Positions 5,466 through 25,129 of a DNA stretch of 25,129 nucleotides are shown here, piece by piece. Source of the stretch: a virus (lineage: Duplodnaviria > Heunggongvirae > Uroviricota > Caudoviricetes); IMG/VR virus record IMGVR_UViG_3300035682_000012, positions 70,073-95,201 of that record; one strand, given 5' to 3'. Made by a program: the position numbers and the translations under genes. Position 1 is the first letter of the stretch; each line of letters opens with the position of its first letter. The notes under the pieces are model-generated. The model was given only the letters and a program-made list of their open reading frames with translations, was not told the DNA's origin and ran no database searches.

Positions 5466-5483
5466 AATTTTTGGTTTTGTTTA

Positions 5484-6093: not shown

Positions 6094-6094
6094 A

Positions 6095-6238: not shown

Positions 6239-6240
6239 AA

Positions 6241-6540: not shown

Positions 6541-6556
6541 AATTATTAATTATACT

Positions 6557-6588
6557 TAAAGATACTACTAAGTTTTGTTATTTCCAAA
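6557..6588 (-). promoter_or_regulatory. Bacteroidota-type promoter
   Basis: TTTG-GAAATAACAAAACTTAGTAG-TATCTTTA, 20-nt spacer. Confidence 0.7.
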
Positions 6589-6922
6589 AAATACTTACTA
6601 AAATTATAGATACCGCTAACGCACACTGCACCAATACTTTGAGTGTAAATGGTTGATTGAAATGATATGGATATAGTATAATACCCACAAATACTCCCGT
6701 AACAAAGAATAAAAATCTATTACTCCACATACTACCAGCAAATCCAGCTACACCATATTCGGATGCTTTAATCCAAAGGAAAGTACATACTACTGCTAAT
6801 AGATACGGTATTGGTGATTTAATCCAATTTGGTGTTTTAAATTGCCAATACATAATGTACCAATGTCCAAATCCACCTGCCGTAAATAACAGAAATGATT
6901 GTAAAATTTTAACTAAGTTCAT
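6578..6922 (-). CDS. Four-TM membrane protein, possibly SMR/DMT-like
   Basis: Four hydrophobic segments in 114 aa. Confidence 0.65.
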   Translation of the reverse strand: MNLVKILQSFLLFTAGGFGHWYIMYWQFKTPNWIKSPIPYLLAVVCTFLWIKASEYGVAGFAGSMWSNRFLFFVTGVFVGIILYPYHFNQPFTLKVLVQCALAVSIILVSIFWK

Positions 6923-8502: not shown

Positions 8503-8508
8503 ATATAA

Positions 8509-8540
8509 CTAATTTAATAAATAAAAACTATATTACCAAA
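8509..8540 (-). promoter_or_regulatory. Bacteroidota-type promoter (variant -7 box)
   Basis: TTTG-GTAATATAGTTTTTATTTAT-TAAATTAG, 20-nt spacer. Confidence 0.5.
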
Positions 8541-9356
8541 TTAAAGCTTAGCTAATTGTATTCTAAATTTAACGTTTGGATATTTTTTTTCTAATTGTTG
8601 TACTGCTGATATATTTTTTTGGGAATCATCTATAAAGAATATATCATCATATCCCTTTTTAATCATATCCTCAATGTACTTTGCTTTCTTTTGTGGGTCT
8701 GCATCACCTAATGCCATTACATAGATACTACCCATACCAATATCTTTTAAGTATTGTTTAACAGGTGCATATGCTGAACGAGCAGTTAATATAGTTACTC
8801 TACGTTCCCCTTCACTACTTACAAATCTTTTAAGTAATTTTGTATAACCCAGTATTTGTTCGGGTTCGTTTACATTGTTGAAATCTGAAAAATCAAATTG
8901 GTCACCTTGTTTTGGTGTATAAACTGCATATTCCCCAGGACTTAATTTAGATTTTTTTCCACCTCTATGTGTTACAAAAATAAATGATTTTGTTTTTACT
9001 AATGTATCATCGAAATCAAATATTCTTAATTTCTTATCTTCTGCCATTAAATCTCTTAATAACATTGATTCCTTTACATTCAACTTATCATCTTCAATAT
9101 GTCCATCAACCGGCTCATATCCTCTATCTATTTTGTCTTTGTTTTTATTATATAAATGTTGTGCACCAGGTTCATTTGGTTCACCATCATCAGAATCTAC
9201 GGTATGTTTTTCCGCAGGTACTCCCATATGTTTAGTGTATGTAGATGTAGCGTGATGTTGATTAAAATCACGTTCTGCTTCGGTTTTTTCAGTATCGGAA
9301 AGACCTGTATTTAAATGCTTACCTGTATCTTCTAACAAATCTTTTAACTTTATCAT
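8541..9356 (-). CDS. HAD-family phosphatase (RNA-repair/nucleotidase-like) with an acidic N-terminal extension
   Basis: LRIFDFDDTL, VTILTAR, KA, FFIDDS motifs. Probable start MIKLKDLLE at ATG 9356, overlapping the upstream TGA as ATGA. Confidence 0.75.
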   Translation of the reverse strand: MIKLKDLLEDTGKHLNTGLSDTEKTEAERDFNQHHATSTYTKHMGVPAEKHTVDSDDGEPNEPGAQHLYNKNKDKIDRGYEPVDGHIEDDKLNVKESMLLRDLMAEDKKLRIFDFDDTLVKTKSFIFVTHRGGKKSKLSPGEYAVYTPKQGDQFDFSDFNNVNEPEQILGYTKLLKRFVSSEGERRVTILTARSAYAPVKQYLKDIGMGSIYVMALGDADPQKKAKYIEDMIKKGYDDIFFIDDSQKNISAVQQLEKKYPNVKFRIQLAKL

Positions 9357-9673
9357 AGTCCACACATTTTTGTAAATTCACCTCTATTATAAATAACATT
9401 CTCTTTATTGAATTTTTCAATCATAGAATGCAATACTTCTTCTCTATTTTTCATATCTCTAATCATATGCACAATTTCTGCAACACCCACTACCATATCT
9501 CTATCGTTTTCATGTCCATCTTCTTCATTTACTTTTTTATTATCATGTCCACACTTGTGACAAACATAGATATTTTTTCCACCGTCTATAATATCCCAAG
9601 ACCACTTGCATTTGTCACAAATTATTTCTTTATTTGTTACAACTTCATTTAATAAATTTTTCAAAAGTATCAT
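9353..9673 (-). CDS. Hypothetical protein with a zinc ribbon and an MILLKNLLNE N-terminus
   Basis: CDKC...YVCHKCGHDN. Confidence 0.7.
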   Translation of the reverse strand: MILLKNLLNEVVTNKEIICDKCKWSWDIIDGGKNIYVCHKCGHDNKKVNEEDGHENDRDMVVGVAEIVHMIRDMKNREEVLHSMIEKFNKENVIYNRGEFTKMCGL

Positions 9674-9888
9674 TTAGGATGTTTATTTAAATATCGTGTA
9701 AGTAATATATAAGATAACCAAAAACAACCTGAAATTGAGTAAAAGATAACGTCTGCTCCCCAATACGAACCTGTCAATTCCATCATTAGTTTGAATAGTG
9801 CATCGTAACCCAGTGGTAGAAAGAACATCGCTAACATTAGTGATGTATCTTTTAAAACAGTTATTCTCTTTTTTGTCTGTTTTTCCAT
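9670..9888 (-). CDS. Small two-TM membrane protein
   Basis: Two hydrophobic helices; ATG with A-rich leader; 4-nt overlap with the downstream gene. Confidence 0.65.
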   Translation of the reverse strand: MEKQTKKRITVLKDTSLMLAMFFLPLGYDALFKLMMELTGSYWGADVIFYSISGCFWLSYILLTRYLNKHPK

Positions 9889-9947
9889 TTTTTAGTATTA
9901 TACTATCACCGTCCATTTAGGCCCTGATTTCGTTATTAATATTGAAC

Positions 9948-10268
9948 TTATCCATTCAATTGTTTCTTGTCTGATTTAGTTGATGTTTTTGCTAATTTTT
10001 CATTTTCTTTTGTAAGAAATTCAACTTTAACCGATAGTGCTGCTACTTGTTTAGTTAAATCTAAAATCATCATTCGTAAATCATCTTTTTCTTTACCGGC
10101 TGCTTCTAATAATCCTTCTAATTTAGCAATTCTATCTTTACAATCGTGTCTAATAAAATCTTCATCTCTTTCTTTATGCATTGCTCTTTTTTCATAGAAT
10201 CTCCATGCAGATGCTCCACCTAAAATTGAAATTGCGGTTATTAATACGGTATATGCGTTTTGGTCCAT
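9948..10268 (-). CDS. Single-TM plus coiled-coil protein (holin-like topology, function unproven)
   Basis: N-terminal TM followed by heptad-rich IAKLEGLLEAAGKEKDDLRMMILDLTKQVAALSVKVEFL. Confidence 0.65.
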   Translation of the reverse strand: MDQNAYTVLITAISILGGASAWRFYEKRAMHKERDEDFIRHDCKDRIAKLEGLLEAAGKEKDDLRMMILDLTKQVAALSVKVEFLTKENEKLAKTSTKSDKKQLNG

Positions 10269-11534: not shown

Positions 11535-12186
11535 TTGAATATTGTGTTTGATTTTCAGGTTTTGGAATGTTGTTTCCTAATTTTTTATCTTCCTGGTCAT
11601 AATATCCTTTTGATGCCTGAACAATATAGTTTTCGGCATTTGTGATATGGTCTTGTATCCATCCTGGAATATCTTTTTCGGTATCACCCAATCTACCCAT
11701 TAAATCATTTACTGCTTTACCAATACTCACCAATGATGCCTTTGCCATTGAAACTTCGTGGTCTTGTGTACCATTACTTGCTACTACATCACCACCCGGT
11801 TCTTCTTCTCTTAATATACTTTCTGGAGTTAATCTTCTTTTAACCATTAACTCTTTTGCTTCTTTTCTAGGTTTGATTTCGTTTTTATAGAATTCACTTA
11901 GTGTTGTATAAACAGTTTCATCAACATGCTTACCCATTCTCCATCCACCACCTTTCTTTTCATACATCTTAACTCTTTCTGTCATTCCTCTACCTTCACA
12001 TACTCTACCTGTTGCTTTCCACAAAATATCATTTGTTGGAGTAGGTTTTGTATCTCTCATTGTGCCTAATGGTCCTTCGTTTGTGTTTTCTGCACTTACA
12101 CCTGTAATTGCGGCTGATGGCATTCCTTCAAAATCATCTTCGGTTGGTACTTCCGGTTTAGTTGTTACACTATTGTTTGTTGTCAT
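11524..12186 (-). CDS. Hypothetical, probably virion-associated protein
   Basis: Acidic low-structure N-terminus; helical DHEVSMAKASL...DIPGWIQDHITNAENYI module; preceded by ATATTTATA. Confidence 0.6.
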   Translation of the reverse strand: MTTNNSVTTKPEVPTEDDFEGMPSAAITGVSAENTNEGPLGTMRDTKPTPTNDILWKATGRVCEGRGMTERVKMYEKKGGGWRMGKHVDETVYTTLSEFYKNEIKPRKEAKELMVKRRLTPESILREEEPGGDVVASNGTQDHEVSMAKASLVSIGKAVNDLMGRLGDTEKDIPGWIQDHITNAENYIVQASKGYYDQEDKKLGNNIPKPENQTQYSNGK

Positions 12187-12216
12187 AGTTATTTCCTCTA
12201 ATATATAAATATAAGA

Positions 12217-13335
12217 TTAATTTACTTTAATTAATTCATTCTGATATTCATTGTAGTTTTTTATATATAGATTAAATATATCTATTTTGAATTGCCCAAT
12301 TTGTGTATTTTGTTTTAATACATATGGTACTTTCATTAAAAATTCTATGTTTTCGTTTGTTAGATGTTCTGCATTTATTGTCACAAAACTATCATTGGTA
12401 AGTTCATCATTAATATCTTTTAACTTACTAACACCCTCAACTTGACCCAAATTATTAGTGTATATAGTTGTAAAGTATGGTTCTAAAAATATAACTAAAT
12501 CTTGTGGTGCATTATAAATGATTAACCCAATGTTATATTTTGGCATTGGAATTGGTTTGTGATTTATATCAAAATACCATATACACCCCCATTTTCTAAT
12601 ATATTTTTTTGTATCGGTATCTATTCTACTTTGATAATCATCTTGTACTTTTTGTAAATCACCACCTTCAAATTTATGCCCTCTTTGTGTAAAATGATAA
12701 ACTAATGCATCTCTACTTTGTATAATATCAAATCCACCAATTACCATTCTATGAAAAATATCAACATCTTCGATTGTTTGAAAATTTGTATCGTGTCCAC
12801 CTAATATATTAATGTACTCATCTTTCAATACAAACCAAGGTGCAAATATACCATTGTTAGTTGTATTTTTTTCTATCGTTTCATAGAACTCATCAAACTT
12901 AGATTGATTAAACTCATTTGGATATGTACCTGCATCTAATTGATATTTTTCCTTACCTGCTGGATGAATTGGTGGCTCTACACACATACCACATACGATT
13001 TTATTTGTTCCCACATACTTCAAAATATTCTCAAAGAAATTTTTGTGAACTATCATATCTGCGTGCAAAATCCCTATTACAGGTCTACTTGCTATTTGAA
13101 ATCCATAATCGTATAAAACAGGATGTCCAAGTTTTTCACTATATATGTGGGTAATTGTATTTGTATGTTTTAATGATAATAACCATTCATTTGTTCCATC
13201 ATTACACCCATCCCCATATAGTATAACTTCAATATCGTCAGAAATATCTCTAACTGATTTATATACTAATTTTAAATACTCTAAGTTATTATAACTTGGT
13301 ATTACTACTGAAATGTCTTTTAATTCGTAACTCAT
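12217..13335 (-). CDS. GT2-family glycosyltransferase
   Basis: SVVIPSYNN, GDGCNDGT, LHADM, EDVDIFHR. Confidence 0.9.
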   Translation of the reverse strand: MSYELKDISVVIPSYNNLEYLKLVYKSVRDISDDIEVILYGDGCNDGTNEWLLSLKHTNTITHIYSEKLGHPVLYDYGFQIASRPVIGILHADMIVHKNFFENILKYVGTNKIVCGMCVEPPIHPAGKEKYQLDAGTYPNEFNQSKFDEFYETIEKNTTNNGIFAPWFVLKDEYINILGGHDTNFQTIEDVDIFHRMVIGGFDIIQSRDALVYHFTQRGHKFEGGDLQKVQDDYQSRIDTDTKKYIRKWGCIWYFDINHKPIPMPKYNIGLIIYNAPQDLVIFLEPYFTTIYTNNLGQVEGVSKLKDINDELTNDSFVTINAEHLTNENIEFLMKVPYVLKQNTQIGQFKIDIFNLYIKNYNEYQNELIKVN

Positions 13336-13973
13336 TCGCCTACATCTTTTATGTGTCTACCCCACCCAGCATGCTTACAATATCCTTCTGTAAATGCCAT
13401 AGCAAAGTATCCTAATGAATAATAATATTTACTTAATTCTAATTCTCTACCTATTGGTTTATACCCATCTTCTGGATAATCTTTCATTTTCTTTAGTGCA
13501 GGATTGAATGTAAATCCGTGCCAATGTCCATCAAATCCCCAACTTACTCTTTGTACTTTATTTCCCATTGGAGTTAAATATACATCAGGTAAAAGTGGAT
13601 GCCCTATATCATTTGGGTCTCTTGTTTGAACACAAATAATCTTATCATCTAAATCTATAATTTCTAAACAAGCTTCTATAAATCCTTCTTTGTAAAATTC
13701 CCAATCTTCTTCCATATGAAAAACATACGGAGTAATTACATATCCATACATTTTATCTATACTTGCAACTTGTCCTATATTAGTTTTGTTGTACCAAAAA
13801 CTTACCGATGGGAATTTTTCTTTTAAATGGTCATTACAACCAATTACAGCACTATCATCAATTACATTGAAATCGGTAATTAGATATGTGTTATATTTGA
13901 AAAAACTTTCTAATGTTTTCTCTAACAAATCTGGTCTATTACAACTTGTACAAACTACACTTACTTCTTTCAT
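13332..13973 (-). CDS. GT-A fold (GT2-like) glycosyltransferase
   Basis: VVCTSCNRPDLLEKTLESF, VIDDS, FHMEEDW. Confidence 0.8.
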   Translation of the reverse strand: MKEVSVVCTSCNRPDLLEKTLESFFKYNTYLITDFNVIDDSAVIGCNDHLKEKFPSVSFWYNKTNIGQVASIDKMYGYVITPYVFHMEEDWEFYKEGFIEACLEIIDLDDKIICVQTRDPNDIGHPLLPDVYLTPMGNKVQRVSWGFDGHWHGFTFNPALKKMKDYPEDGYKPIGRELELSKYYYSLGYFAMAFTEGYCKHAGWGRHIKDVGE

Positions 13974-14452
13974 AATCTTATTATTCTTTGTACCATCGGT
14001 TTGATATTAATTAATGATGGTTCAAAATATTCTTTAAATTCTTTAAAACTTTTAAAACTTTTAAATGTATTTTTTTTATCAACTATTTTTTTTAATTCAT
14101 TATTTTTTTCAATAATGTAATTTGAATTATAATTTGGGTTATGTCTACTTTTAATTTGTATTTTTAATTCTTCTTCTTTCAAATTAATTATTCCAAATTT
14201 AATATTTTTATAATAATGTTTACACTCTAATATAAAGTTTGGTGGAAATATATTTGTTAAATAAATCTGATTATCTTTATTAACCAATTCTAACATAACA
14301 TCTATTAATAATATTTCATTTTCATATTCACCATTTGGTAATGCTTTTATCACATCCCAATCCACTAAATCATAATCTTTTAATTTATTATTGTTTAGTG
14401 AACAAAATGTTGTTTTACCACTACATTCGGTTGTGAAAATTATCCAATTCAT
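13970..14452 (-). CDS. P-loop kinase-like protein (degenerate Walker A)
   Basis: IIFTTECSGKTT, LVDWD, IKSRH lid-like Arg. Confidence 0.5.
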   Translation of the reverse strand: MNWIIFTTECSGKTTFCSLNNNKLKDYDLVDWDVIKALPNGEYENEILLIDVMLELVNKDNQIYLTNIFPPNFILECKHYYKNIKFGIINLKEEELKIQIKSRHNPNYNSNYIIEKNNELKKIVDKKNTFKSFKSFKEFKEYFEPSLINIKPMVQRIIRL

Positions 14453-15078
14453 TATAACGTTTCGTAAAGAGCATTTTGTTTTTCTTGTCTTTCTATTTCT
14501 TTAATGTGTTTAATACAATATGTTTCATCTTGTGGAAATATTGTATAACTTTCAAATCCCTGTAATTGTTCATGTACTTTACCTGCCCAAAAAATAGATT
14601 GTTTGTTTTGATATAATCTACCTTGAACATCAGGAAAATTTACCCATCCTTTCTCATTTACATTCCATCTCCATTTTTGAATATGTGATTCTGTTAATCC
14701 ATTCACTATATTAATTCTAGGAATAAAAAACATTTCAATAGTATCATTACCTTCTAATATATTTGATAATCCCTGTATTAATATTGGGTCTATTGTTTCG
14801 TCTGCATCTAATTGGAATATCCAGTCACCCGTACAATTTTGTGTAAGATGTTGTTTGTATGTTCCAAAATCTCCATTCAGAGGATATCCAATTGTTTTAT
14901 CAATTTTTTTGTCAAATGTCAAATCATTAAGATATTCAAGTACTTCAACCGTCACTTTTTGATTATCATATTGAACAACAATTTCATCTACTTCTCTTTT
15001 GTTTTCTATTAGTAGTGGTAATAATGTTTGTATTTCTTTTATTTCATTTACAACCGTAATTGCATAACTTATTTTCAT
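14452..15078 (-). CDS. GT2-family glycosyltransferase
   Basis: ISYAITVVNE, GDWIFQLDADE, PDVQGRL, VHE. Confidence 0.85.
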   Translation of the reverse strand: MKISYAITVVNEIKEIQTLLPLLIENKREVDEIVVQYDNQKVTVEVLEYLNDLTFDKKIDKTIGYPLNGDFGTYKQHLTQNCTGDWIFQLDADETIDPILIQGLSNILEGNDTIEMFFIPRINIVNGLTESHIQKWRWNVNEKGWVNFPDVQGRLYQNKQSIFWAGKVHEQLQGFESYTIFPQDETYCIKHIKEIERQEKQNALYETL

Positions 15079-15079
15079 A

Positions 15080-15625
15080 TTATATTATTTCTTGTTCATC
15101 TGTATTAAAATTTTTGAATCCTAATTTTGGTTTTAGTTTAGATACATCAAAATACAACTCTTTAATCATCTTTACATTTTTCTTTTTGTAAGTGCGATAT
15201 ACATCATATTTTTGCAAATCTCTATTATTTTTAACTGATTTTTTATAAAAGGTTCTACCACTTTTATCAATTAAGATTGCTTTCCTACCCGTGTCATATC
15301 CTAAATTTTCATTAAACGTTGCATCTTTATCTTCGATTTCTTTAATTAATTCACGAGTGTATGCTTGGTTTTGAATATCATCATATAATTTTAAAAATCT
15401 AGTTAATGGTAGTTCATTTAATTTTATACAATGTATCAATCCTTTTTGTGAATTTTTACCTAATACCAATAACAATGGGGTTGTTGCGGCACTATATGAT
15501 TCACTTACTCCTGTATCTTCATATTTGTAACCATATAATCTATAAAATCCGCCATTCTTAACTTCATTAATAGAGGTTACTATTTCTTTATAAAAATATT
15601 TTCTATAATGATGTATCTGATTCAT
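15080..15625 (-). CDS. Hypothetical phage protein; weak resemblance to T4 gp2 DNA end protector
   Basis: PLLLVLG...IHCIKLNELP...YRTY spacing recalls the gp2 PLxxxLG...GLNLHYLP...KxY pattern; not verified. Confidence 0.45.
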   Translation of the reverse strand: MNQIHHYRKYFYKEIVTSINEVKNGGFYRLYGYKYEDTGVSESYSAATTPLLLVLGKNSQKGLIHCIKLNELPLTRFLKLYDDIQNQAYTRELIKEIEDKDATFNENLGYDTGRKAILIDKSGRTFYKKSVKNNRDLQKYDVYRTYKKKNVKMIKELYFDVSKLKPKLGFKNFNTDEQEII

Positions 15626-16892
15626 TTATCTTAGTAAGGGTTGGTAAATTCAATGGTATAAATTGTTTTATTGTTGGAACATATTGAGTTAAAATAGTGT
15701 CAAATGATTTAGTCATTTTTTGTAAACTAAAATTTTCGTTATTATACTTACCCAATTTTTTAGATTCAACTTTATATGTGTTGTAGTTCTTATAAATATC
15801 TTTTAACTTATTAATTGCATTAGAATAATTTACATAAAACCATTGACTACCATCTATAATAAATTGATTTTGTGCCGATTTATCTACGGGTTTTAATTCA
15901 CCCTCTAATAATACTGCACCACTTTTTAAGAAATCTAAATGACCACTCCAATTAGATGCAATTACCGGCTTACCCGTCAAACTGAATTCTAATAGAGGTC
16001 TGCCGAATCCCTCACCATGTGTAAATGATACCATTGCTTTTACTTTTGGATGTTCATATAACCCATGCATTTCGGTTTCAGTTAAATCACCATGTAGTAA
16101 ATAGATTGAAGGACACTTATCACCAAATTCATTTGTAAGTGTTTCTATTCTGCCCGCCATATCTTCTCTATCTCTTACACTAAACCCAGCGGATGATGTT
16201 TTTAATACCAATGCTGGTTTTTGTTTTTCATTACTAAAAGCGTGACAAAAACTTTTGATTGTCATTCCAATATCTTTTCTATCATGTCCTAATTGACCTT
16301 GTAACCAGTGCCCGGTAATTAAGAATGCAAACTCTTCTTTGATTGCATCTAATTCCGTAATATATGGAACTTCTGCCGCACCAAATGTTGCATCATTAAA
16401 TCCTTCAAATAGAACTTCAATTGGTTTTGTAATTTTGAAATTATTAATAACTTGTTGTGTTTGATTATTTTTTTCTACATACGATGTTTTTATTAATACA
16501 TCTTTAGAAAATTCAGATGGAACTATAATCAAATCCATTTTATTACAACCATGTATCCAATCAATAGGACAAACCGTTGTTTCTATACCTGCTGAAATAC
16601 CGATATTATATGTTCCTTTTCTTTCAAATTCATTAGGAACTGTAATTTGAATAAACACATCGGGTGTTCTATCAATAGGTAATCCAATTCTATCTATGAT
16701 TTGTTTATCACTATCATTTTTTGCATTTAGACCATTCATAGGAGTACTACCCCATCTCATTGATACAATTCTAATATCGTATTTATCTAAACTAATTAAA
16801 CTTCTAACTAAATCTCTACTATGGTCTCCGTAACCACTTCGCGTTGCTACCGGTCCTTGAACTACTACTAAAGGTTTTTTAATTTCTGCCAT
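15603..16892 (-). CDS. GT4-family (GT-B) glycosyltransferase
   Basis: TRSGYG, HGEGFGRPLLEFSLTGKPVIASNWSGHLDF. Confidence 0.9.
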   Translation of the reverse strand: MAEIKKPLVVVQGPVATRSGYGDHSRDLVRSLISLDKYDIRIVSMRWGSTPMNGLNAKNDSDKQIIDRIGLPIDRTPDVFIQITVPNEFERKGTYNIGISAGIETTVCPIDWIHGCNKMDLIIVPSEFSKDVLIKTSYVEKNNQTQQVINNFKITKPIEVLFEGFNDATFGAAEVPYITELDAIKEEFAFLITGHWLQGQLGHDRKDIGMTIKSFCHAFSNEKQKPALVLKTSSAGFSVRDREDMAGRIETLTNEFGDKCPSIYLLHGDLTETEMHGLYEHPKVKAMVSFTHGEGFGRPLLEFSLTGKPVIASNWSGHLDFLKSGAVLLEGELKPVDKSAQNQFIIDGSQWFYVNYSNAINKLKDIYKNYNTYKVESKKLGKYNNENFSLQKMTKSFDTILTQYVPTIKQFIPLNLPTLTKINESDTSL

Positions 16893-16895
16893 AAC

Positions 16896-18299
16896 TTATT
16901 TTATTTTGAATAATTCGTATTTTTTTCTAGGTTTCCAATTCGTAAATGCACCATCCATTCCATTGATTAAAGTTTGACACATATTTTGTACACTTAATCC
17001 ACCAACTCCTAGTGCAAAATCTCTACCTAATATTCCTTTTTCTTTTCTTTGTTCTCTACTCATATCATACCAATGACGGATTGAATCTGCTACTTCAACA
17101 TAATCAATATGGTCTTCAAATATATAAGGTGTAGGTACTGAACCTGTAAATGAACGAGATGTTGACCAAACCGGTGTTACCCAATCTCCCCACTTTAATT
17201 TATCTTTCCATAATCTCCAATCATGTAGAGTACCCCACTTAACATAATCCGATGGTCTTGTATAATCCCAATTGCCATGCACATCTTCATTTTGGAATAC
17301 AAATCCACATTGGTCTTGTATACCACCCGTTACATTTACTATAATTGGTGTTCCTGCCATAATAGATTCTGCAGTTGCTAATCCAAATCCTTCGTTAGAT
17401 GCTATATTAATTGTAACATCTGCAATATTATAAAGATAGTTTAATTCAGTTTCATTCCATCTACCTGTATCAAATACTACATTGATTTCAGGTGCACAAT
17501 CTGCAATAACTCTAGGTAAATCTGTACCATTATCATCCACCGGTTGGGTATGCATTAACAATACGGTCTTTTTAGCTTGCTCAGGTGAAAGTGTTGCTAC
17601 AAATTCTTTGAATGCGTATATAACTTCAATCGGTTGTTTTCGTCTGATATTTCTATTACTCCAATACAATACGAAATCATATGTTTTATCCCCAAATATT
17701 TTCTTTTTGAAATCGGCAGGTACATCTGCTACTTTATAATCTTCCGGATTAATACCATGTGGTACATAACTCACTTGCCAATTTTCAGGTTGTTTCCATC
17801 TATCTTTTGAGGTTAAACTCCAAACTCTATTTGTAATACCAAATGTTTGTTTTGAAATAGTACCTATCCAATCACAACTTTCGTAGTAATCTCTATTGTA
17901 CTTAGGGTCTGGTAAATCATCCCAAATGTGGTAAAAGAATATTGGTGTATGTTGTCTGATTTCATGTTCAATATCATATAACCATATCCAATATCTCGGG
18001 TCTGTAAAGTGTAGAATAGCATCAGGTTTTTCAATTTCTAATATTTGTCTTAACTTTTCTGCCGTTCCATACCCTGTTGATGGATAAATTTTTAGATATG
18101 CATCTTCAATTCCGGTTCTACCACGAACATCATCACATAAATCTAAAATTTTACCTTCTTCTGGATGTGTTACTGCTGCACCCAATTGAACCCAATCATA
18201 GTGTTGTAGTGAACCCATTACTAATTGTTTACTCATATTAGCAATACCACTACTCATTCTTAAATCATCTGCCAATAACAGGATTTTCTTTTTTGCCAT
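16896..18299 (-). CDS. GT4-family (GT-B) glycosyltransferase
   Basis: SGIA, YVPHGI, NRNIRRK, SNEGFGLATAESIMAGTPII. Confidence 0.9.
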   Translation of the reverse strand: MAKKKILLLADDLRMSSGIANMSKQLVMGSLQHYDWVQLGAAVTHPEEGKILDLCDDVRGRTGIEDAYLKIYPSTGYGTAEKLRQILEIEKPDAILHFTDPRYWIWLYDIEHEIRQHTPIFFYHIWDDLPDPKYNRDYYESCDWIGTISKQTFGITNRVWSLTSKDRWKQPENWQVSYVPHGINPEDYKVADVPADFKKKIFGDKTYDFVLYWSNRNIRRKQPIEVIYAFKEFVATLSPEQAKKTVLLMHTQPVDDNGTDLPRVIADCAPEINVVFDTGRWNETELNYLYNIADVTINIASNEGFGLATAESIMAGTPIIVNVTGGIQDQCGFVFQNEDVHGNWDYTRPSDYVKWGTLHDWRLWKDKLKWGDWVTPVWSTSRSFTGSVPTPYIFEDHIDYVEVADSIRHWYDMSREQRKEKGILGRDFALGVGGLSVQNMCQTLINGMDGAFTNWKPRKKYELFKIK

Positions 18300-18315
18300 A
18301 ACTTATTTTATTTCA

Positions 18316-18513
18316 TTAAAATTGTGAACCACTTACTTGTAACTCTGAATGTTTTGTTAAATTGTCTCTATATGAATTATCTGTCATATATAGGTTTAAA
18401 CTTCTATTAACTAATTTTTGTAACGTAATCCCGTCAGTTATCGTATGAATCTTAAAGGATTTGTATAAATCAGTTAATATTTTTACAGATGTTAATTGTG
18501 TTTTGTCTGCCAT
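18316..18513 (-). CDS. Ribbon-helix-helix DNA-binding protein
   Basis: LTSVKI beta strand followed by two helices (DLYKSFK...TLQKLVNRSLNLY). Confidence 0.7.
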   Translation of the reverse strand: MADKTQLTSVKILTDLYKSFKIHTITDGITLQKLVNRSLNLYMTDNSYRDNLTKHSELQVSGSQF

Positions 18514-18552
18514 AATATTTTCCTTTTGTTTTATATATGTATATATATATAA

Positions 18553-19425
18553 CTATTTAAATAAAGAACACAATTTTCTCTCTTTAAATTCACACCATCT
18601 ACAATTTTTATTTTTCTCACCGGGAACTGGCTCAAAATTTGCTTGTAAATTATAATTACCATCCTCTAAAAATACTGAATCTACAAACTGCATAAAATCC
18701 TTATATCCTTTTAATGTAGTATTAGTTCCATGCGCAGGTACGAATGCTGACATATGTGGAATTGGAAATTCGTAATCTTTGTTTATCTTTCTTTTGATGA
18801 TATGATATTCTACTTTAATTTTTTCAATATCTATCTTATACTGAATAGATAGGAAATATTTGTAAAGTAATAATTGATTGATTTTGGTTTTATCCTTCTT
18901 CATATCTTTTGTCCAACCACCTCTACTTGTCTTAAAATCTATAATATAATATTCACCACTTTCTTTATGCTTCAAAAGTACATCGATGAATCCCATATAA
19001 CTTACATTCTCTTTTACTTTTAAGTTAAGTGGTTTTTCTACTCCTACTAACTCCCATCCTTTCTTTGAGAACAATCTATCACCATGTTTCCTAAACCAAT
19101 TTAAAATCTCAATACCATCCCCATAGAACTCCTCTAATTCTTCTTTGGTACAAACTACTTCACCATCACTAAACTTCTCTTGTTCCTTCTTAAAATTAGA
19201 TTTAAGAGATTCTAATAACATTAGGTTTAGGTCTAATTGATTTGCTTGTTTTTTACTTACACCATAGAAAACCGTAAGGTAATGTTGCAAAACTTCGTGC
19301 ATGGCTGTCCCAAATACCATATTGATATTTGATTTAGACTCACTTAGTTTATCTATGTATGCTAACTTGTATTGTTGTGGACAATTTGCCCACATTGTGT
19401 ATTGTGAATAACTTACTCTTGCCAT
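18553..19425 (-). CDS. PD-(D/E)XK RecB/Cas4-like exonuclease with a probable Fe-S staple
   Basis: SYSQ...CP, GTAMHE, GFIDV, IIDFKTS, QLLLY and C-terminal CRWC...C (four Cys in total). Confidence 0.85.
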   Translation of the reverse strand: MARVSYSQYTMWANCPQQYKLAYIDKLSESKSNINMVFGTAMHEVLQHYLTVFYGVSKKQANQLDLNLMLLESLKSNFKKEQEKFSDGEVVCTKEELEEFYGDGIEILNWFRKHGDRLFSKKGWELVGVEKPLNLKVKENVSYMGFIDVLLKHKESGEYYIIDFKTSRGGWTKDMKKDKTKINQLLLYKYFLSIQYKIDIEKIKVEYHIIKRKINKDYEFPIPHMSAFVPAHGTNTTLKGYKDFMQFVDSVFLEDGNYNLQANFEPVPGEKNKNCRWCEFKERKLCSLFK

Positions 19426-19430
19426 ATACT

Positions 19431-19462
19431 CTAATATACGACTATTTACTTAATTTACCAAA
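19431..19462 (-). promoter_or_regulatory. Bacteroidota-type promoter (variant -7 box)
   Basis: TTTG-GTAAATTAAGTAAATAGTCG-TATATTAG, 20-nt spacer. Confidence 0.6.
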
Positions 19463-19497
19463 AAATAGAGAGAATATCACTTATATATTATAAAAAA

Positions 19498-21078
19498 TTA
19501 TAATATCATTCTAGAGCCTATCTGAAAATTACTTAAAAAGTCAGAAAATGCTTTCGTATTTCCACTTAATTTGTAGTTAGCTGAAAATCCAAATCTCTTA
19601 CTAATTTTATAGTCAAATGCTGTACCTAATAAAAATCCCATATGTCTATTAACTGTTGTTACACCCGTTGCACTATTATAACTTATAGGTGCAAACATTG
19701 TAAATACCTGTGGTGATATTGTTAATTTTTTATTATACTGATAAGGTTTAGTCCAAAACACGATTGCCGATGTAGCCATATTGTATTCAAACCCACCCGT
19801 CTCATCGTTTTTAAGGAGTAGATTGATTACACCCACATTATAACCATATGTTCCTTTTTTTGCAGTTGGTTTGATGTATGTATATCCTAATAAATTCATA
19901 TAGTTTCCACCTAAGTATGCAATTCCAGTTCCGTATGAATGTATTGCATCTAATTGTCCATCATCCGTCATTCCCATTTTTGTTATACCACCCGTCATTA
20001 CGATTGAACTTAAATTGCTATTCACCATCAATCCCGCACTATAACTTACATCACCTGCTAACGATGATTTACTAAGTCCCATAGATATAGATGCTAAAAA
20101 ACTACCTGGAGTTGCTTCCATAACACTTATATCAGATGCCAATAGTGTTGGATTTGTTACCTCTTGTTTTTTCTTTTTTTCTTCTTCTTTTTTCTTTTCT
20201 TCCTCCTTCTTTTTCTCTTCCTCTTTTTTAGCTTCTTCTTTCTTTTCTTCCTCTTTTTTAGCTTCTTCCTTTTTCTCCTCAGTCTTTTTTTCTTCTGATT
20301 TCTTTTCTTCGGTTTTAGCTTCTTCTTTCTTTTCTTCTGTTTTAGCTTCAGTTTTCTTTTCCTCTGTTTTTTGTTCAGCAGGTTTGTCCGATTTAGTTTC
20401 AGCCGGCTTTGCTTCCGCAGGTTTTGCTTCCGTTGATGATGAACTACTTGATGAACTACTACCACTTGCAGGTGGTGGGGATGAACTTCCACTTGCAGGT
20501 GGTGGGGATGAACTTCCACTTGCAGGTGGTGGAGCGGTAACTACGGGTGGAGGGGGTGGTGGTGGTGCAATGTTTATTGGTGGTGTTGCGGCAGAACTTG
20601 CAGCTCCACTTGCGGCAGATGATGCAGCTCCACTCGCTGCTCCACTCGCGGCACTTGCGGCTGCTTTTGCTGCTGCATCCGATGCAGCTTTTGCTGCGGC
20701 ATCTGCTGCAGCTTTTGATGCAGCATCTGCGGCTGCTTTTGCGGCGGCGTCAGCGGCGGCTCTCGCTGCGGCATCTGCGGCTGCTCTTGCGGCAGCTTCC
20801 TGTGCTAATCTTATATTATCGTTTAGTGGACAAGGTGTTGCGAATATACTATTGACCCATATTTGGAATGCACCACTACTAATATCTGCCAATGTTACAA
20901 TTTTAGATTTACCTCTAATAACTGCAATAGTTTGGTTTTGTCCGAATGGAATTACAACCACATATACCTTTTGGTCACATGGGTCTATATAAGTTTGGGT
21001 AATAGTTTGACCGTCTGCTCTAAATGCAGTTAAAGTTGTAACAATTAATAATAAAATAGTTACTAGCCATTTCTTCAT
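19498..21078 (-). CDS. Exported protein: small N-domain, Ala/Pro/EK low-complexity stalk, C-terminal outer-membrane beta-barrel-like domain
   Basis: Signal peptide; (A)AADAAAK repeats, PPPASGSSS repeats, KEEEKKK runs; C-terminal alternating strands ending SNFQIGSRMIL. Confidence 0.7.
   Translation of the reverse strand: MKKWLVTILLLIVTTLTAFRADGQTITQTYIDPCDQKVYVVVIPFGQNQTIAVIRGKSKIVTLADISSGAFQIWVNSIFATPCPLNDNIRLAQEAAARAAADAAARAAADAAAKAAADAASKAAADAAAKAASDAAAKAAASAASGAASGAASSAASGAASSAATPPINIAPPPPPPPVVTAPPPASGSSSPPPASGSSSPPPASGSSSSSSSSSTEAKPAEAKPAETKSDKPAEQKTEEKKTEAKTEEKKEEAKTEEKKSEEKKTEEKKEEAKKEEEKKEEAKKEEEKKKEEEKKKEEEKKKKQEVTNPTLLASDISVMEATPGSFLASISMGLSKSSLAGDVSYSAGLMVNSNLSSIVMTGGITKMGMTDDGQLDAIHSYGTGIAYLGGNYMNLLGYTYIKPTAKKGTYGYNVGVINLLLKNDETGGFEYNMATSAIVFWTKPYQYNKKLTISPQVFTMFAPISYNSATGVTTVNRHMGFLLGTAFDYKISKRFGFSANYKLSGNTKAFSDFLSNFQIGSRMIL
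20462..20532. repeat. 27-bp tandem repeat, about 2.6 copies, coding PPPASGSSS
   Basis: ccacttgcaggtggtggggatgaactt at 20462 and 20489, partial copy at 20516. Confidence 0.9.
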
Positions 21079-21923
21079 TAGTTATTACTTAGTCCGATTC
21101 CGATTTGTGTGTAACCCCTTATAGGGTCTGTATCTAATTTTATGGTAAAGAGTTTAAAGTCTCTTGTTAGTCCAATTTTGAATGTAGTAAAGTTTGTATT
21201 TGATTTTGGAAATGATATACCACCTAAGTCATCTTTACCTTGCCATCTAATAACTTCACTACCAAATCCTATCATACCATGTATTCCCAATTTATTAATT
21301 CGTTTACCACCACCAATATAGAAAGTTGATTCTTTTTTCCAATCGGTTTTACTAAGTGTAAAATCAACGTTGTTAATTTGGCCATATGGATAGTATTGAT
21401 TTTGGTCTATTGCATAAGTCATTACATAATCCATAATGAAATATGATTTTTTACCACCTATTAATCCCCAAAATGATGCCTGTTTGTTATTTGTATATCC
21501 TAATCCAAATGCAGTATAAACTGGTTCTTTTCTAATAGTATCTCTTTTGCCATTTTCGTATATGTGAATTATACTTCTTTGTCTCCATCCAAAATCATCA
21601 TACCAAATGTAAGGAAATGGTTGATACCATCCCCAATTTCCCCAATAGTAACCAAACTGATTATTTCTATTCCAATTTTGAATACCAACTCTACCACGTT
21701 GGTTTGGTTGTGATTCTTGTGGTGGATTGTTTCTCCAACTACTCACATTATTTTGTTGTGGTATAGATGGTTGAACTCTTGTTTGAGTTGATTGTGATGT
21801 TTGTGATGATGCCGGAACACTTCCACCTGTTTGTCTCCAGCTACTAACTTGTGCATTTAACATAACTGCACATATTAAGACTAACACAATAGTTAATCCA
21901 CTAATCAATAAAAATTTTTTCAT
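21078..21923 (-). CDS. Exported protein with a Q/N-rich N-region and a C-terminal beta-barrel-like domain
   Basis: Start set at MKKFLLISG (ATG 21923); signal peptide; VSSWR twice within a Q/S/N-rich tract; aromatic-rich GYYWGNWGWYQ; amphipathic strands to the C-terminus. Confidence 0.7.
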   Translation of the reverse strand: MKKFLLISGLTIVLVLICAVMLNAQVSSWRQTGGSVPASSQTSQSTQTRVQPSIPQQNNVSSWRNNPPQESQPNQRGRVGIQNWNRNNQFGYYWGNWGWYQPFPYIWYDDFGWRQRSIIHIYENGKRDTIRKEPVYTAFGLGYTNNKQASFWGLIGGKKSYFIMDYVMTYAIDQNQYYPYGQINNVDFTLSKTDWKKESTFYIGGGKRINKLGIHGMIGFGSEVIRWQGKDDLGGISFPKSNTNFTTFKIGLTRDFKLFTIKLDTDPIRGYTQIGIGLSNN

Positions 21924-22156
21924 ATTATCTCCTTTAAACATATTCTATCCAATTCCTCTGGTCTTAATGCGAAGGTTTGTTCTTGGTTACCATTTTCTGA
22001 AATCATATTAACTATCCATAATCCCAATCTTTTTTCTTCTATTTCAATTTTTTGTCCTGTTATAAATCCCATATCCATCAATCGTAATCTTAAACATGGT
22101 GTGCAATTTTCACATGGGTCATTTTGAGGTACATCTATAACATCGTAAGTTTTCAC
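21920..22156 (-). CDS. feoA: FeoA-domain protein with an N-terminal CxxCxxC
   Basis: LRLRLMDMGFITGQKIEI...FALRPEE; GTG start. Confidence 0.75.
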   Translation of the reverse strand: MKTYDVIDVPQNDPCENCTPCLRLRLMDMGFITGQKIEIEEKRLGLWIVNMISENGNQEQTFALRPEELDRICLKEII

Positions 22157-22263
22157 TATTTCAATTTTTCTAAGATAGCTAAGTTCTTCTTTATTTGTTC
22201 TGCTGTTTTAACTCCAGAACGTTTACTTCGCATTGCTCTTTTTTTCTTTGGTGCTGTTCCCAT
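22156..22263 (-). CDS. Small basic peptide, 35 aa (not in the ORF track)
   Basis: MGTAPKKKRAMRSKRSGVKTAEQIKKNLAILEKLK*; fills the CsgG-FeoA gap, stop overlaps the FeoA GTG. Confidence 0.6.
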   Translation of the reverse strand: MGTAPKKKRAMRSKRSGVKTAEQIKKNLAILEKLK

Positions 22264-22274
22264 TTGTATAAATT

Positions 22275-22994
22275 TTATTTTGTGTAAATACCTTTTTTAA
22301 TCATTCTACCTAATATTCTTGCACACGCAATATCCAATGCCTTTTTAGTTGCTATTGAAATTGTTGATTGATTGAATTTAACCTCATCAACCGTTGCATC
22401 TGAAAGAAAAGTTAATTCTCTTTTAGTTGTTGCTTCTCCTAATCCACTTGCTGCAAATATCTCACCTGTCTCTGCATCGGTAAATCTAACTTGTAAACCA
22501 ATACGAGTAACCACCATATTTTTAACACCATTACTTAAATTTACTGTCTCATCTTCTGATACTGAATAATCATAACATTCTATCTCTACGAAATAATGTG
22601 CTAATCTAATTTTACCCCTACCATCGAGCTTATCTTGCGATATACCGCTCTGCGATGCTTGAAACTGCTTAACCATGCGATTTTTAATTTCAGTTTTATC
22701 TTCTGTAAATGTAAATCTATTAAGATTACTAAGATACTCCAATGTAATATTAGCCACACCGAGACCGACACGTTTTTCTTTAAGTTCCGGATATTGTTCG
22801 TACATTTCTTCACTTATACCACATTTTAAAATTTGAATTGGAATGGTAGGCCCGTCATAATCCATATATTGGCTTATGTCCACTTTTGTTTCAAAACTTG
22901 CTTTGTATTGTTCTGTTTTAGTTGAACCTATATTCTGACTACTTGCAACAAGACTTACCAAACAAAAACTTAATAAAACGAATAAACTTTTCAT
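22275..22994 (-). CDS. CsgG-like (curli assembly/transport family) exported protein
   Basis: Signal peptide; GLGVANITLEYL...NRFTFTE, VTRIGLQVRFTDAETGEIFAASGLGEA and IATKKALDIAC fit the CsgG-fold pattern. Confidence 0.65.
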   Translation of the reverse strand: MKSLFVLLSFCLVSLVASSQNIGSTKTEQYKASFETKVDISQYMDYDGPTIPIQILKCGISEEMYEQYPELKEKRVGLGVANITLEYLSNLNRFTFTEDKTEIKNRMVKQFQASQSGISQDKLDGRGKIRLAHYFVEIECYDYSVSEDETVNLSNGVKNMVVTRIGLQVRFTDAETGEIFAASGLGEATTKRELTFLSDATVDEVKFNQSTISIATKKALDIACARILGRMIKKGIYTK

Positions 22995-23039
22995 ACATTC
23001 TTACTTTTTATATAAATATAGAATTTTATCATTATAAAT

Positions 23040-23068
23040 AAAAAACCCCCACCGATTAAGTGGGGGTT
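23040..23068 (-). terminator. Intrinsic terminator
   Basis: AACCCCCAC-TTAATCG-GTGGGGGTT followed by further Ts, after the 23086 stop. Confidence 0.85.
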
Positions 23069-23085
23069 ATCATATTATTTTGTTA

Positions 23086-24288
23086 TTAATTACCTTTTGT
23101 TGGAAATCTAGTCCAACCACTAATCCATATTGGTTTGGATAATATTTCCATTTCAGCTTTTGTATAAGATACTTGTTTGTTACCTTCTGATAAAGCTTTT
23201 GCCTTCATATCAGCTGCAGTAAATACAATTGATGTTGATTTGAAATTTAATAATGGGTCATACGCCTGAACCTCATTGTTTTGGAATTTACTTACACCAT
23301 CTTTATATGCTTGTGCAGTTTCATTACTTTCCATTGAGAATCCCCCTTTTTGATATCCAACAATCTTTGAGTTAGTAATTGTGAATTGAGTTGCTCTCCT
23401 CCATCTTAAACCTAAATTATGGTTTGCTAATGAAGCCACATCAAATGGTCCAACTAAAATCATATTATCTAATTTAGGATGTGTAAATGGTTGTGCAGAT
23501 GTACCTGTTCCATCATTATCACATTCTACACCATTTCCAGCATCACCAGCATCTACGAATTGTGGGTCTCTCTTTGAAACTGAATACGATACTGAACCTC
23601 TATATCCAAAATCAAAATCGTAATCATCATCCGCAGTTGCATAAGCGTATAAGTTTTTTGCATTTACAGTTCCACCAAAAAATTCAAATGCATCATCGTT
23701 AGCGTAAATAGTTTGAACATTCTCAATGATTGTCCCACTACCAACTCCACCTAATGTTAGTGCGTTGATTTCAGAGTTTGGCATTGCTGCGATACCAGCG
23801 TATTCAATTCTTACATATTTTAGAATACCACTATTATCTAAATCGTTAGTACCACCATAAGGTCTACCAATGCCGCCTTCAATAGTTGGTTCGGAAGTTC
23901 TATTAGTAGTTGCTCTACCTAACAATACAACACCACCCCAATCACCAGGTGTTCTTTCACCAACTGCTTTACCTGATGTAAATATAATTGGTTTTGTAGA
24001 AGTTCCCTCTGCAATTAGTTGTGCACCTCTTTCAATAATTAATGCACCTTTCTCTGCAATATCAGAAACAATTGTTGTACCCGGTTGGATAATAAGTTTA
24101 GCACCATCAGTTACATATACATATCCTTTTAATGTCCATGTCTTGTCCGATGTTAAAGTTGTTGTTGTGTTAATGTTTCCACTTAATGTTGTTGTAGTTG
24201 GAACATTGATAGGCGTTACATCGCCACCTAATTCTTTTTTGCAGCTGAATAATCCTAATACCAAAATAAGCCCTAATAATTTTTTCAT
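23086..24288 (-). CDS. Bacteroidota lipoprotein, right-handed beta-helix type, partner of a TonB-dependent receptor
   Basis: Lipobox LFSC-KKE; WTLKGYVYV...IQPGT, GDWGGVVLLG, DNSGILKYVRIEYAG, DDAFEFFGGTV, DDDYDFDFG, NGVECDND. Confidence 0.85.
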   Translation of the reverse strand: MKKLLGLILVLGLFSCKKELGGDVTPINVPTTTTLSGNINTTTTLTSDKTWTLKGYVYVTDGAKLIIQPGTTIVSDIAEKGALIIERGAQLIAEGTSTKPIIFTSGKAVGERTPGDWGGVVLLGRATTNRTSEPTIEGGIGRPYGGTNDLDNSGILKYVRIEYAGIAAMPNSEINALTLGGVGSGTIIENVQTIYANDDAFEFFGGTVNAKNLYAYATADDDYDFDFGYRGSVSYSVSKRDPQFVDAGDAGNGVECDNDGTGTSAQPFTHPKLDNMILVGPFDVASLANHNLGLRWRRATQFTITNSKIVGYQKGGFSMESNETAQAYKDGVSKFQNNEVQAYDPLLNFKSTSIVFTAADMKAKALSEGNKQVSYTKAEMEILSKPIWISGWTRFPTKGN

Positions 24289-25129
24289 AGATTCAAATTT
24301 AATGTTAAAGAAATTGTTCGTTCGTTGTTTGTTTTTATCAAATTTCGGTTTTGTAACTTTTGATAATAGATTGATGGTTGGCCTAACACATCACCTATTG
24401 CCAATTTTATTTCACCTTTATTTAATTTATGTAAAAGGGTAACATCCAATACATCTCTGCTGTTTTCAAAAATGTCTGGATAACCCTGAAATCCTATTGC
24501 TGATATTCTATCACCTACTCTATTGTAAGTTATGTTAAGTGTGTTTTTCTTTTTATGTATATTCACACCACCATTTAATACATAGTTTGATTGCCCCTGT
24601 AATTGTCTTTTAACTCCTTTAACATTTACTTCGGAATTCATTACCGAAGCGTTTGTATAAAAATCAAACCACTCAGTTACCTTTTTACGGAACTCTAATT
24701 CAACACCATAAAGATATGCGTTATCAGGATTTGAGTAAGTTAATAATAAGTTTGATGGAACTGAACCATCAGCTACTACTTGCTCAATTGGTTTTATGAA
24801 GTTCTTACCAAATAGGGATACTGAAATGTTCTCTCCTACTTTTGGATATAATTCCCATTTCAAATCTAAATTATATATGTCAGATTTTTCTAATTTAGGA
24901 TTACCCAATAATTGTGCGTTTCTTACAAAATCATAATAAGCAAAATTAGCTACTTCTCTAAACTCCGGCCTTGCTAATGTTTTACTTAATGAAAATCTAT
25001 ACTTCGTTTTTTCTAAATTGTATGAAAGATTTAATGATGGTAATACATCCAAATACTCTCTATTAACTTTAACTTTACTTCCACTAAAATCTGCGGTAGA
25101 TACATCAAATAAATTATATTCGGTTCTAA
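24285..25129 (-). CDS. TonB-dependent receptor, C-terminal part (runs off the window)
   Basis: Frame stays open from 25127 (RTEYNLF...YLDVLPSLNL); SKTLARPEFRE, GNPKLEKSDIYNLDLKWELYP, FGKNFIKPIE; ATGA overlap with the lipoprotein gene. Confidence 0.9.
   Translation of the reverse strand, partial: RTEYNLFDVSTADFSGSKVKVNREYLDVLPSLNLSYNLEKTKYRFSLSKTLARPEFREVANFAYYDFVRNAQLLGNPKLEKSDIYNLDLKWELYPKVGENISVSLFGKNFIKPIEQVVADGSVPSNLLLTYSNPDNAYLYGVELEFRKKVTEWFDFYTNASVMNSEVNVKGVKRQLQGQSNYVLNGGVNIHKKKNTLNITYNRVGDRISAIGFQGYPDIFENSRDVLDVTLLHKLNKGEIKLAIGDVLGQPSIYYQKLQNRNLIKTNNERTISLTLNLNL

Follow-up and report, generated by a model that had tools for sequence, protein, structure and literature searches.

In Flavobacterium johnsoniae, the genes Fjoh_0545/0546 belong to the phoBR operon and are among those most strongly induced by phosphate depletion (PMC8115612). 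They encode a TonB-dependent transporter and, immediately downstream, a lipoprotein partner of the pectin-lyase fold; BT4055/4056 and Caulobacter ElpS are homologues, and the adjacency of the pair is kept in 621 genera (10.1101/2023.03.17.533168). An AlphaFold-Multimer model of BT4055-BT4056 from the same work contains few confident contacts, and a preprint on PusCD complexes (10.64898/2026.09.03.749221) leaves the pair unmentioned. Here, we describe a phage counterpart of this pair, together with a second set of envelope genes, in a stretch of 25,129 bases (the window) that forms the end of a 95,201-base IMG/VR virus record (IMGVR_UViG_3300035682_000012), which is 39% complete by CheckV. The minus strand carries all genes of the record, and seven of them make up the block considered here (Table 1).

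Phages with related genes have also been reported. The pstS/phoA auxiliary genes of cyanophages possess pho boxes, and their control by the host PhoBR system has been shown experimentally (PMC10976474). A 'SusC' receptor is recorded in the megaphages Mar_Mega_1 and LR745206 (PMC9723777), and a TonB-dependent receptor of Lak phages, with 22 strands, figures among 1,603 outer-membrane proteins of huge phages (10.64898/2026.10.24.761521). As in the phage described here, a huge phage in these cases encodes a complete TonB-dependent transporter; in their accessible portions, the two reports deal with the receptor by itself, viewed as an importer of carbohydrates or as possibly an exclusion factor, and describe no lid partner, phosphate-starvation link or cis-element. 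In LR745206, an unrelated megaphage of 635 kb, we found a Beta_helix_4 lipoprotein homologue (39% identical) next to the receptor (27% identical), in reversed order. Both csgG and csgF are carried by pelagimyophages and by the OM43 phage Melnitz (PMC7029224, PMC9004378). A preliminary description of the window, made from its letters alone, had put the block forward as its best candidate for an undescribed system; phage TonB-dependent receptors and phage CsgG have already been published, and the region is not a new kind of system. The literature searched held no paper on a phosphate-type transporter-lid pair in phages, on its repeat array, or on the cassette of 239-amino acid (aa) protein, peptide and stalked barrels described below.

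Two gene sets in one block

The block probably comprises two independent, phage-native outer-membrane cassettes: cassette A, a host-derived importer, and cassette B, a phage-specific set. Linkage was counted in related loci flanked by 8 kb or more on each side, of which there were 33 for the transporter-lipoprotein pair and 36 for the gene of the 239-aa CsgG-fold protein. Transporter and lipoprotein genes are neighbours in 33/33 of these phage loci, and in 29 of the 36 the next gene set includes a barrel gene of the 526-aa type, placed after that for the 239-aa protein. The two sets seldom meet: the 239-aa gene lies within reach in 8/33 pair loci, and the pair is present in 4/36 loci of the 239-aa gene. 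In G001, a CheckV-complete relative, the cassettes are 28 kb apart; a second complete relative, G002, contains the 239-aa gene and no lipoprotein homologue, cassette A being missing. Because a terminator divides the two sets in the window, their co-occurrence is low and 28 kb separate them in G001, we distinguish two cassettes rather than one, and these are inherited independently. The FeoA gene, detected in 2/33 and 5/36 well-flanked loci and in varying positions, is an occasional accessory passenger.

These counts bear on the preliminary description, in which the block was read as a single contiguous seven-gene module, a reading that they do not sustain. A conserved gene order in other phages, which it had proposed to look for, does exist for the pair and for the 239-aa and 526-aa genes, though rarely for the pair together with the CsgG-like and barrel set. 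Its gene list fared better. All seven minus-strand open reading frames were found as it had listed them, and they are tightly coupled: the lipoprotein start overlaps the transporter stop by 4 nt, and overlaps of 1 nt, 22 nt and 1 nt follow in series from the 35-aa peptide gene to the 526-aa gene. Its fold calls (TonB-dependent receptor, beta-helix lipoprotein, CsgG-like protein, FeoA and barrels) hold, as does its claim that the phage encodes outer-membrane proteins. N-terminal signal sequences could be read directly from the sequences of five of the seven products. Pfam matches in the block were limited to the transporter barrel and FeoA, and no PHROG family matched the block proteins, save for low-complexity noise on the 526-aa protein, to which the NCBIfam matches on the same protein also amount.

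Table 1. Positions of the genes and sequence elements discussed, counted from the first base of the window
Feature	Position	Strand	Basis
TonB-dependent transporter (cassette A), C-terminal 280 residues, 5' part beyond contig end	24285-25127 (feature to 25129)	-	Pfam
Lipoprotein (cassette A), 400 aa, Beta_helix_4	23086-24288	-	PF28492 homologues, lipobox LFSC
Intrinsic terminator closing cassette A	23044-23068	-	Hairpin fold
CsgG-fold protein, 239 aa, predicted exported	22275-22994	-	AlphaFold2 and Foldseek
Highly basic peptide, 35 aa, without signal sequence	22156-22263	-	Conservation in related loci
FeoA-domain protein, 78 aa	21920-22156	-	PF04023
Q/N/P-rich protein, 287 aa, predicted exported	21078-21941	-	Orthologues, weak OMP_b-brl signal
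Low-complexity protein with C-terminal barrel, 526 aa, predicted exported	19498-21078	-	AlphaFold2 and Foldseek
ATATTTATA sites	2009, 5238, 10311, 12212, 15799, 23019		
Heptose-pathway enzymes (adenylyltransferase, isomerase-like protein, cupin) and at least 3 glycosyltransferases	2344-3462 and 12217-18299		

A transporter and its lipoprotein related to phosphate-starvation genes

The transporter fragment in the window matches OMP_b-brl_3 (1.4e-19) and TonB_dep_Rec_b-barrel (3e-11) of Pfam. Its orthologue in contig L006, the closest relative (96% identical), is a protein of 826 aa (7524-10004), 96% identical over the common part, with the domains CarbopepD_reg_2 (8.3e-8), Plug (2.3e-7) and OMP_b-brl_3 (4.5e-26) and a match to TIGR01782 (3e-54) that lies under the cut-off of the model. 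Judged by this full-length orthologue, the transporter is of the canonical Bacteroidota TonB-dependent type. The lipoprotein has a signal sequence that ends in the lipobox LFSC, followed by KKE, and PF28492 (Beta_helix_4) was found on all 120 of its closest listed homologues; its three best Atlas clusters are 100% PF28492 and belong to Bacteroidota. It belongs to a family of pectate-lyase-like beta-helices and is presumed to serve as the surface lid of the transporter. Both genes are under purifying selection, with ratios of non-synonymous to synonymous substitution rates (dN/dS) of 0.11 for the transporter (60 pairs) and 0.16 for the lipoprotein at dS ~1.

The Pfam make-up of the transporter (Plug, CarbopepD_reg_2, OMP_b-brl_3) is that of Fjoh_0545/0546 (whose lipoprotein is called 'FII' and whose operon 'PUSIV'), of BT4055/BT4056 in Bacteroides thetaiotaomicron and of ElpS with its neighbouring receptor in Caulobacter, and so is the phage gene order, in which a pectin-lyase-fold lipoprotein partner comes immediately downstream; the likeness to the F. 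johnsoniae genes rests on domain make-up, operon layout and literature. Unlike Fjoh_0545/0546, the phage pair resides in a phage genome, with no phoBR beside it, and it is shorter than most bacterial pairs (826 versus 930-945 aa for the transporter and 400 versus 440-470 aa for the lipoprotein). A lipoprotein gene next to a transporter gene was seen in ~65 of 80 bacterial loci, nearly all of them from Bacteroidota; the bacterial transporter (28-39% identical to that of the phage) is encoded directly upstream of the lipoprotein (42-63% identical), and none of the other five phage genes was found near the pair in the 80 loci.

The preliminary description had suggested a tree of the lipoprotein with its host homologues. 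In that unrooted tree, the phage sequences form one clade with support of 97. Among bacterial sequences beyond this clade, those of Chitinophagales come closest; a single sequence from a bacterium, L166, falls within it. Cassette A is a host-derived auxiliary gene pair. L166 is JBILRJ010000032.1, from a Spirosomataceae bin of Lake Mendota; its pair, at 5497-9215, has the short lengths typical of the phage genes, to which its members are 62% and 72% identical, and is flanked by a purple acid phosphatase tagged for the type IX secretion system and by a phosphodiesterase-like gene. That this locus is a mis-binned phage was considered and rejected, its gene content being bacterial; L166 may stand for the donor lineage, may have received its pair from a phage, or may hint at which host is infected. 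In L193, from a second Lake Mendota bin (Sediminibacterium), positions 8001-9164 encode a Beta_helix homologue (44% identical) that forms a very long branch as sister of the phage clade; no transporter gene adjoins it.

The neighbourhoods of the bacterial pairs point to phosphate. Genes for PHO4 and PhoU_div lie within 8 kb of the pair in 10-11 of the 80 bacterial loci, and Metallophos genes in 9. In four of the four Flavobacteriales genomes having regulators of the OmpR type (4-8 each), such a regulator is encoded 1.6-3.7 kb from the lipoprotein homologue, a layout that is that of Fjoh_0542-0546, which is induced by phosphate depletion (PMC8115612); in G029, a phosphate-selective porin also adjoins the regulator/lipoprotein locus. 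Metallophos genes are present in 22 phage loci as well, with products 37-42% identical to those encoded beside bacterial pairs. In L006, a gene for a family 2 glycosyltransferase (GT2) and a Metallophos gene (11545-12977) stand between FeoA and the 287-aa gene, an arrangement that recurs in 22 phage loci. The GT2 and Metallophos pairing presumably recalls the remodelling of membrane lipids by PlcP plus a glycosyltransferase under phosphate stress.

Upstream of the pair, we recognized a direct repeat of the form TTAAY-N6-TTAAY, with a period of 11 bp and often three or four units. Such an array precedes 18 of 57 bacterial transporter genes, for an expectation of 0.017 per 300 nt, and sites with three units are very rare, at 1-5 per genome; G005, G093 and G029 each have one of these immediately upstream of the pair and next to the regulator. 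In the phages, where the upstream DNA of the window itself falls beyond the contig end, 29 distinct upstream sequences of relatives were counted, and the array is strongly enriched among them at -62 to -91: 11/29 by a strict and 24/29 by a relaxed definition, against backgrounds of 0.008 and 0.032. The array may represent a retained Pho box. In several relatives (L039/L040, L020, L027), the TTAAY array with the transporter gene behind it is directly preceded by a terminator hairpin with a G/C run, which leaves cassette A bracketed by terminators in these contigs.

Phosphate-responsive nutrient import is the best-supported mechanism for cassette A. The host Sec, lipoprotein-export, beta-barrel assembly (BAM) and TonB machineries would set up an additional TonB-dependent importer and its surface lid during infection; the phage pair would probably stay under the host PhoB regulator by way of the Pho-box-like array, and the phage would thereby sustain the uptake of a phosphorus-containing substrate while replicating a genome of more than 300 kb. 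Phosphorus is often limiting for lake bacteria, and a phage genome of this size has a very high phosphorus demand. As with cyanophage pstS/phoA, a host-derived phosphorus gene carried by a phage appears to have kept the sites of the host regulator; the present case differs in its phylum, Bacteroidota, in consisting of an outer-membrane importer and lid rather than a periplasmic binding protein or phosphatase, and in the regulation being deduced from the array. If true, an importer that keeps the host phosphate switch would carry the paradigm of cyanophage pstS over to Bacteroidota and to transport of the TonB-dependent kind; in the phage genes one would also have a compact, strongly conserved variant of the bacterial transporter-lid pair.

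A CsgG-fold protein with stalked barrels

The most conserved gene of the neighbourhood encodes the 239-aa protein (~82% identity, versus 35-45% for the nearby nuclease and glycosyltransferases; dN/dS 0.10 at dS ~1). The most conserved accessory protein of an abundant phage clade is thus an exported CsgG-fold protein. Its AlphaFold2 model, with a predicted local distance difference test (pLDDT) value of 63.6, was compared with known structures using Foldseek: the top 16 matches are all CsgG (E 1.7e-7 to 7e-6; template modelling scores 0.38-0.50), led by 4uv2, 4uv3 and 6l7c, with alignments covering 221-247 columns, and FlgT, LptE and PelC folds follow. The Atlas language-model score against CsgG/LpoB clusters is 0.94. 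No match at E <= 0.01 was found in Pfam (PF03783), NCBIfam or PHROG, and the window query returned no such protein from 401 Bacteroidota genomes. The only Cys of the signal region (C11) is not conserved and the consensus ends in AxAQ, a site of the signal-peptidase-I type, by which the protein is predicted to be exported and not a lipoprotein. The long strands at 134-173 are amphipathic yet highly charged. Four copies are predicted to associate head to tail, with an interaction score from aligned errors (ipSAE) of 0.73 versus 0.00 for the best control, runs that share 90% or more of their contacts, and a partner pLDDT of 78 or higher. In a calibration, 20 of the 30 proteins with a solved pair structure reached the ipSAE mark, as did 1 of the 23 solved as single chains; these counts come from two copies and hold roughly for four, and similarity to solved CsgG rings may raise the score.

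In at least 35 related loci, a gap of 5-15 nt separates the 239-aa gene from the gene behind it for the 35-aa peptide, which begins MGTAPKKKRAMRSKRSG in the window. With 40-80% identity and the conserved pattern MRS(R/K)(R/K)SG(V/L)KK...NLxIL, the latter is a genuine, conserved gene. A role as a CsgF-like plug was ruled out for this peptide, which is strongly basic and lacks a signal sequence. Around the 239-aa gene, we found no csgE/csgF or amyloid-subunit genes; its neighbours are instead the basic peptide, FeoA and the barrels. Just upstream of the CsgG-fold gene in L006, at 5211-5990, is a class-3 lipase gene (Lipase_3, 7.7e-28).

The FeoA-domain protein scores 25.1 bits with PF04023, against a cut-off of 23, and contributed 10 sequence pairs to the dN/dS analysis. 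Since neither the window nor the related loci contain FeoB, a role in iron transport is doubtful. The 287-aa protein, whose 33 unique orthologues are 269-296 aa long, begins in its mature form with the conserved sequence QVSSWR, which leads into a Q/N/P-rich linker; it matches OMP_b-brl weakly (E 0.006, under the cut-off), and its Atlas score of 0.88 to OMP_b-brl clusters serves as a lead only, the clusters of its own family being viral. It probably ends in a small outer-membrane barrel. In the 526-aa protein, the signal peptide is followed by a Cys-containing head (~60 aa), a low-complexity stalk (~250 aa) rich in Ala, Pro, Ser and Glu/Lys, and a C-terminal barrel, and 85 orthologues keep this architecture with stalks that vary in length and composition. 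Its C-terminal 206 aa are modelled with ~12 strands (AlphaFold2, pLDDT 89.4), and the best Foldseek matches of the barrel are all outer-membrane barrels (NanC at 7.5e-4, TamA and the autotransporter Hbp), albeit weak ones at 7.5e-4 or worse; no Autotransporter Pfam match was obtained. No sequence similarity was detectable between the 287-aa and 526-aa proteins. Gln is the first residue of the mature 287-aa protein, and the sites where the 239-aa and 526-aa proteins are predicted to be cleaved also fall at or next to a Gln, a feature usual for exported Bacteroidota proteins.

Like CsgG and the published phage CsgG, the 239-aa protein combines this fold with a predicted export signal and predicted head-to-tail self-association, and, like the phage copies, it is not accompanied by curli subunit genes. 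It departs from CsgG in having no PF03783 match, lipobox Cys, CsgF or CsgE, in its partners, a cytoplasmic basic peptide and stalked barrels, and in its Bacteroidota host. A closer counterpart exists in the cultured Flavobacterium phage vB_FspM_immuto (NC_055915.1, 160 kb), whose gp017 shares 53% of its residues with the 239-aa protein (E 2e-67). Directly after it, gp018 has a signal peptide, the Cys-containing head (E 6e-7), a low-complexity stalk and an overall length like that of the 526-aa protein; both immuto genes are annotated as hypothetical proteins. No homologue of the basic peptide, FeoA or the 287-aa protein, and no receptor-lipoprotein pair, was detected in immuto, which belongs to another genus and has lectin and cohesin genes upstream. 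The core pair of cassette B is conserved from Flavobacterium phages of 160 kb to jumbo phages of 335 kb, and its presence in a cultured phage makes its role testable at the bench.

Cassette B is phage-specific, without a host counterpart. The CsgG-fold protein would most likely assemble into a ring within or beneath the outer membrane, and the barrel proteins would anchor disordered stalks there. The cassette may serve to remodel the envelope, candidate roles being surface re-dressing or exclusion, stabilization of the envelope, and control of lysis or secretion. A bolder extension, which we offer tentatively and consider doubtful, is that cassette B builds an undescribed, phage-specific envelope apparatus on infected Bacteroidota, a CsgG-fold ring with stalked barrels at the surface or spanning the periplasm, alongside a PhoB-wired importer that would make phage yield in lakes depend directly on phosphate sensing by the host.

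Several points weigh against our interpretation of the two cassettes. The intact transporter gene and its array are seen in relatives only, the N-terminal 546 residues and the upstream region lying outside the window, and the phage transporter is just 28-39% identical to most bacterial ones. The phosphate role of the bacterial pair rests on regulation and gene context; PhoB is only presumed to bind the TTAAY repeats, no published Bacteroidota Pho box was found in the literature, and PMC8115612 gives no Pho-box motif. The model of the 239-aa protein is of low confidence (pLDDT 63.6) and is joined by neither a Pfam CsgG match nor a conserved lipobox Cys. The sign of transcription is weak: a freshwater metatranscriptome of 2017 (run X20) includes contigs from a related strain that match, at 90-97% identity, stretches of the lipoprotein gene, the end of the transporter gene and portions of the 287-aa and 526-aa genes within window positions 19647-24369, which hints at expression, with carried-over DNA as a possible source. 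In these RNA contigs, depth figures and stretches without RNA cover carry no information.

Superinfection exclusion and receptor masking offer a different role for the same proteins: the pair would take the place of a receptor of the host or mask it, and a shield over the surface would be provided by the stalked barrels. TonB-dependent transporters are common phage receptors, and the barrel proteins evolve faster (dN/dS 0.31-0.39, with 0.39 for the 287-aa protein) and have variable stalks, as expected of exposed surfaces. The blocking of LamB by Lom of phage lambda is cited in a preprint as a precedent for outer-membrane proteins of phages (10.64898/2026.10.24.761521), and phages of the same clade carry many genes that modify lipopolysaccharide (LPS) or glycans (PMC9723584). 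Transporter and lid, however, are under strong purifying and not diversifying selection, and the Pho-box-like array, together with the phosphoesterase co-acquired in relatives, argues for nutrient-responsive use. We therefore regard exclusion as unlikely to explain the block; for cassette B taken alone, exclusion or masking is as likely as any other reading.

Gene neighbourhood and phage origin

It is more improbable still that transporter, lid, CsgG-like pore, FeoA and barrels act together as one seven-gene import or secretion machine. The seven genes are co-oriented neighbours in the window, and in several relatives (for example, L006, L010, L031 and L049) they fall within ~10 kb. Against this stand the strong terminator between the lipoprotein and 239-aa genes, the low co-occurrence and the situation in G001 and G002 given above, the rarity of FeoA, and the bacterial pair loci, which never carry the remaining genes. 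Gene order also varies among relatives: in L006, the pair intervenes between the genes for the 239-aa protein and FeoA, in the company of the GT2 and Metallophos genes, and the order from lipoprotein to 239-aa gene seen in the window recurs in contigs L008/L153 and L077/L114.

The dividing terminator has a stem of 10 bp with 6 G-C pairs and a U-run (-17.5 kcal/mol, z = -3.05). The 15-mer GTGGGGGTTTTTTAT, which the preliminary description had noted as common to two terminators, occurs exactly twice, at 5247-5261 and 23038-23052 (chance expectation 0.01), and the other copy also folds as a good hairpin (5247-5280, -15.4 kcal/mol). As had likewise been observed, ATATTTATA comes after both 15-mer terminators. 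Across the 95-kb record, the coding strand has 10 occurrences and the other strand none; most stand 3-35 nt upstream of a start codon, and the sequence looks like a -7-type promoter element (TAnnTTTG, with a final A). At 30% G+C, its count is near the expectation from composition, and as support for a promoter or for the native origin of the block, for which it had been invoked, it is modest evidence.

All seven genes are native to the phage. Viral relatives, on contigs of up to 335 kb and many of them in mid-contig, number 111 for the lipoprotein and 506 for the 239-aa protein. The CheckV-complete relatives G001 and G002 (326-335 kb) encode Terminase_6N, bS21 and PhoH; their match to PMC9723584, a paper in which the genes of cassettes A and B go unmentioned, identifies the clade as freshwater bS21 jumbo phages predicted to infect Bacteroidetes. 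The preliminary description had made its claim of native origin dependent on viral hallmarks such as terminase and on read coverage near 23050; the former are present in these complete genomes, and lake-water DNA contigs with zero differences, from three runs, span 21824-23418 and 17866-19550, so that the suspected join is sound. That host chromosome was joined to the phage contig, as a prophage edge or a chimera near 23050 or at the contig end, is scarcely credible: although the block lies at the very end of the contig, where the transporter is cut, the pair is bacterial in origin and the proteins have no PHROG family match, the same genes stand mid-genome in complete, terminase-bearing phages, exact contigs span the junctions, the order from lipoprotein to 239-aa gene is repeated in other contigs, the block has a phage-like G+C content (0.31-0.35, versus 0.39-0.42 in the bacterial loci), and its terminator 15-mer is common to another phage gene boundary. 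A local rise in G+C at 20000-21000 reflects the Ala/Pro/Ser low-complexity coding of the 526-aa gene and not foreign DNA.

A megablast of the window against GenBank phages gave no match. Elsewhere, the record encodes a DNA ligase, a CobS/CobT-like pair, HNH and PD-(D/E)XK nucleases, glycosyltransferases and heptose-pathway enzymes. The glycosyltransferase and heptose genes of the window fit the LPS- and glycan-modifying repertoire reported for bS21 phages (PMC9723584).

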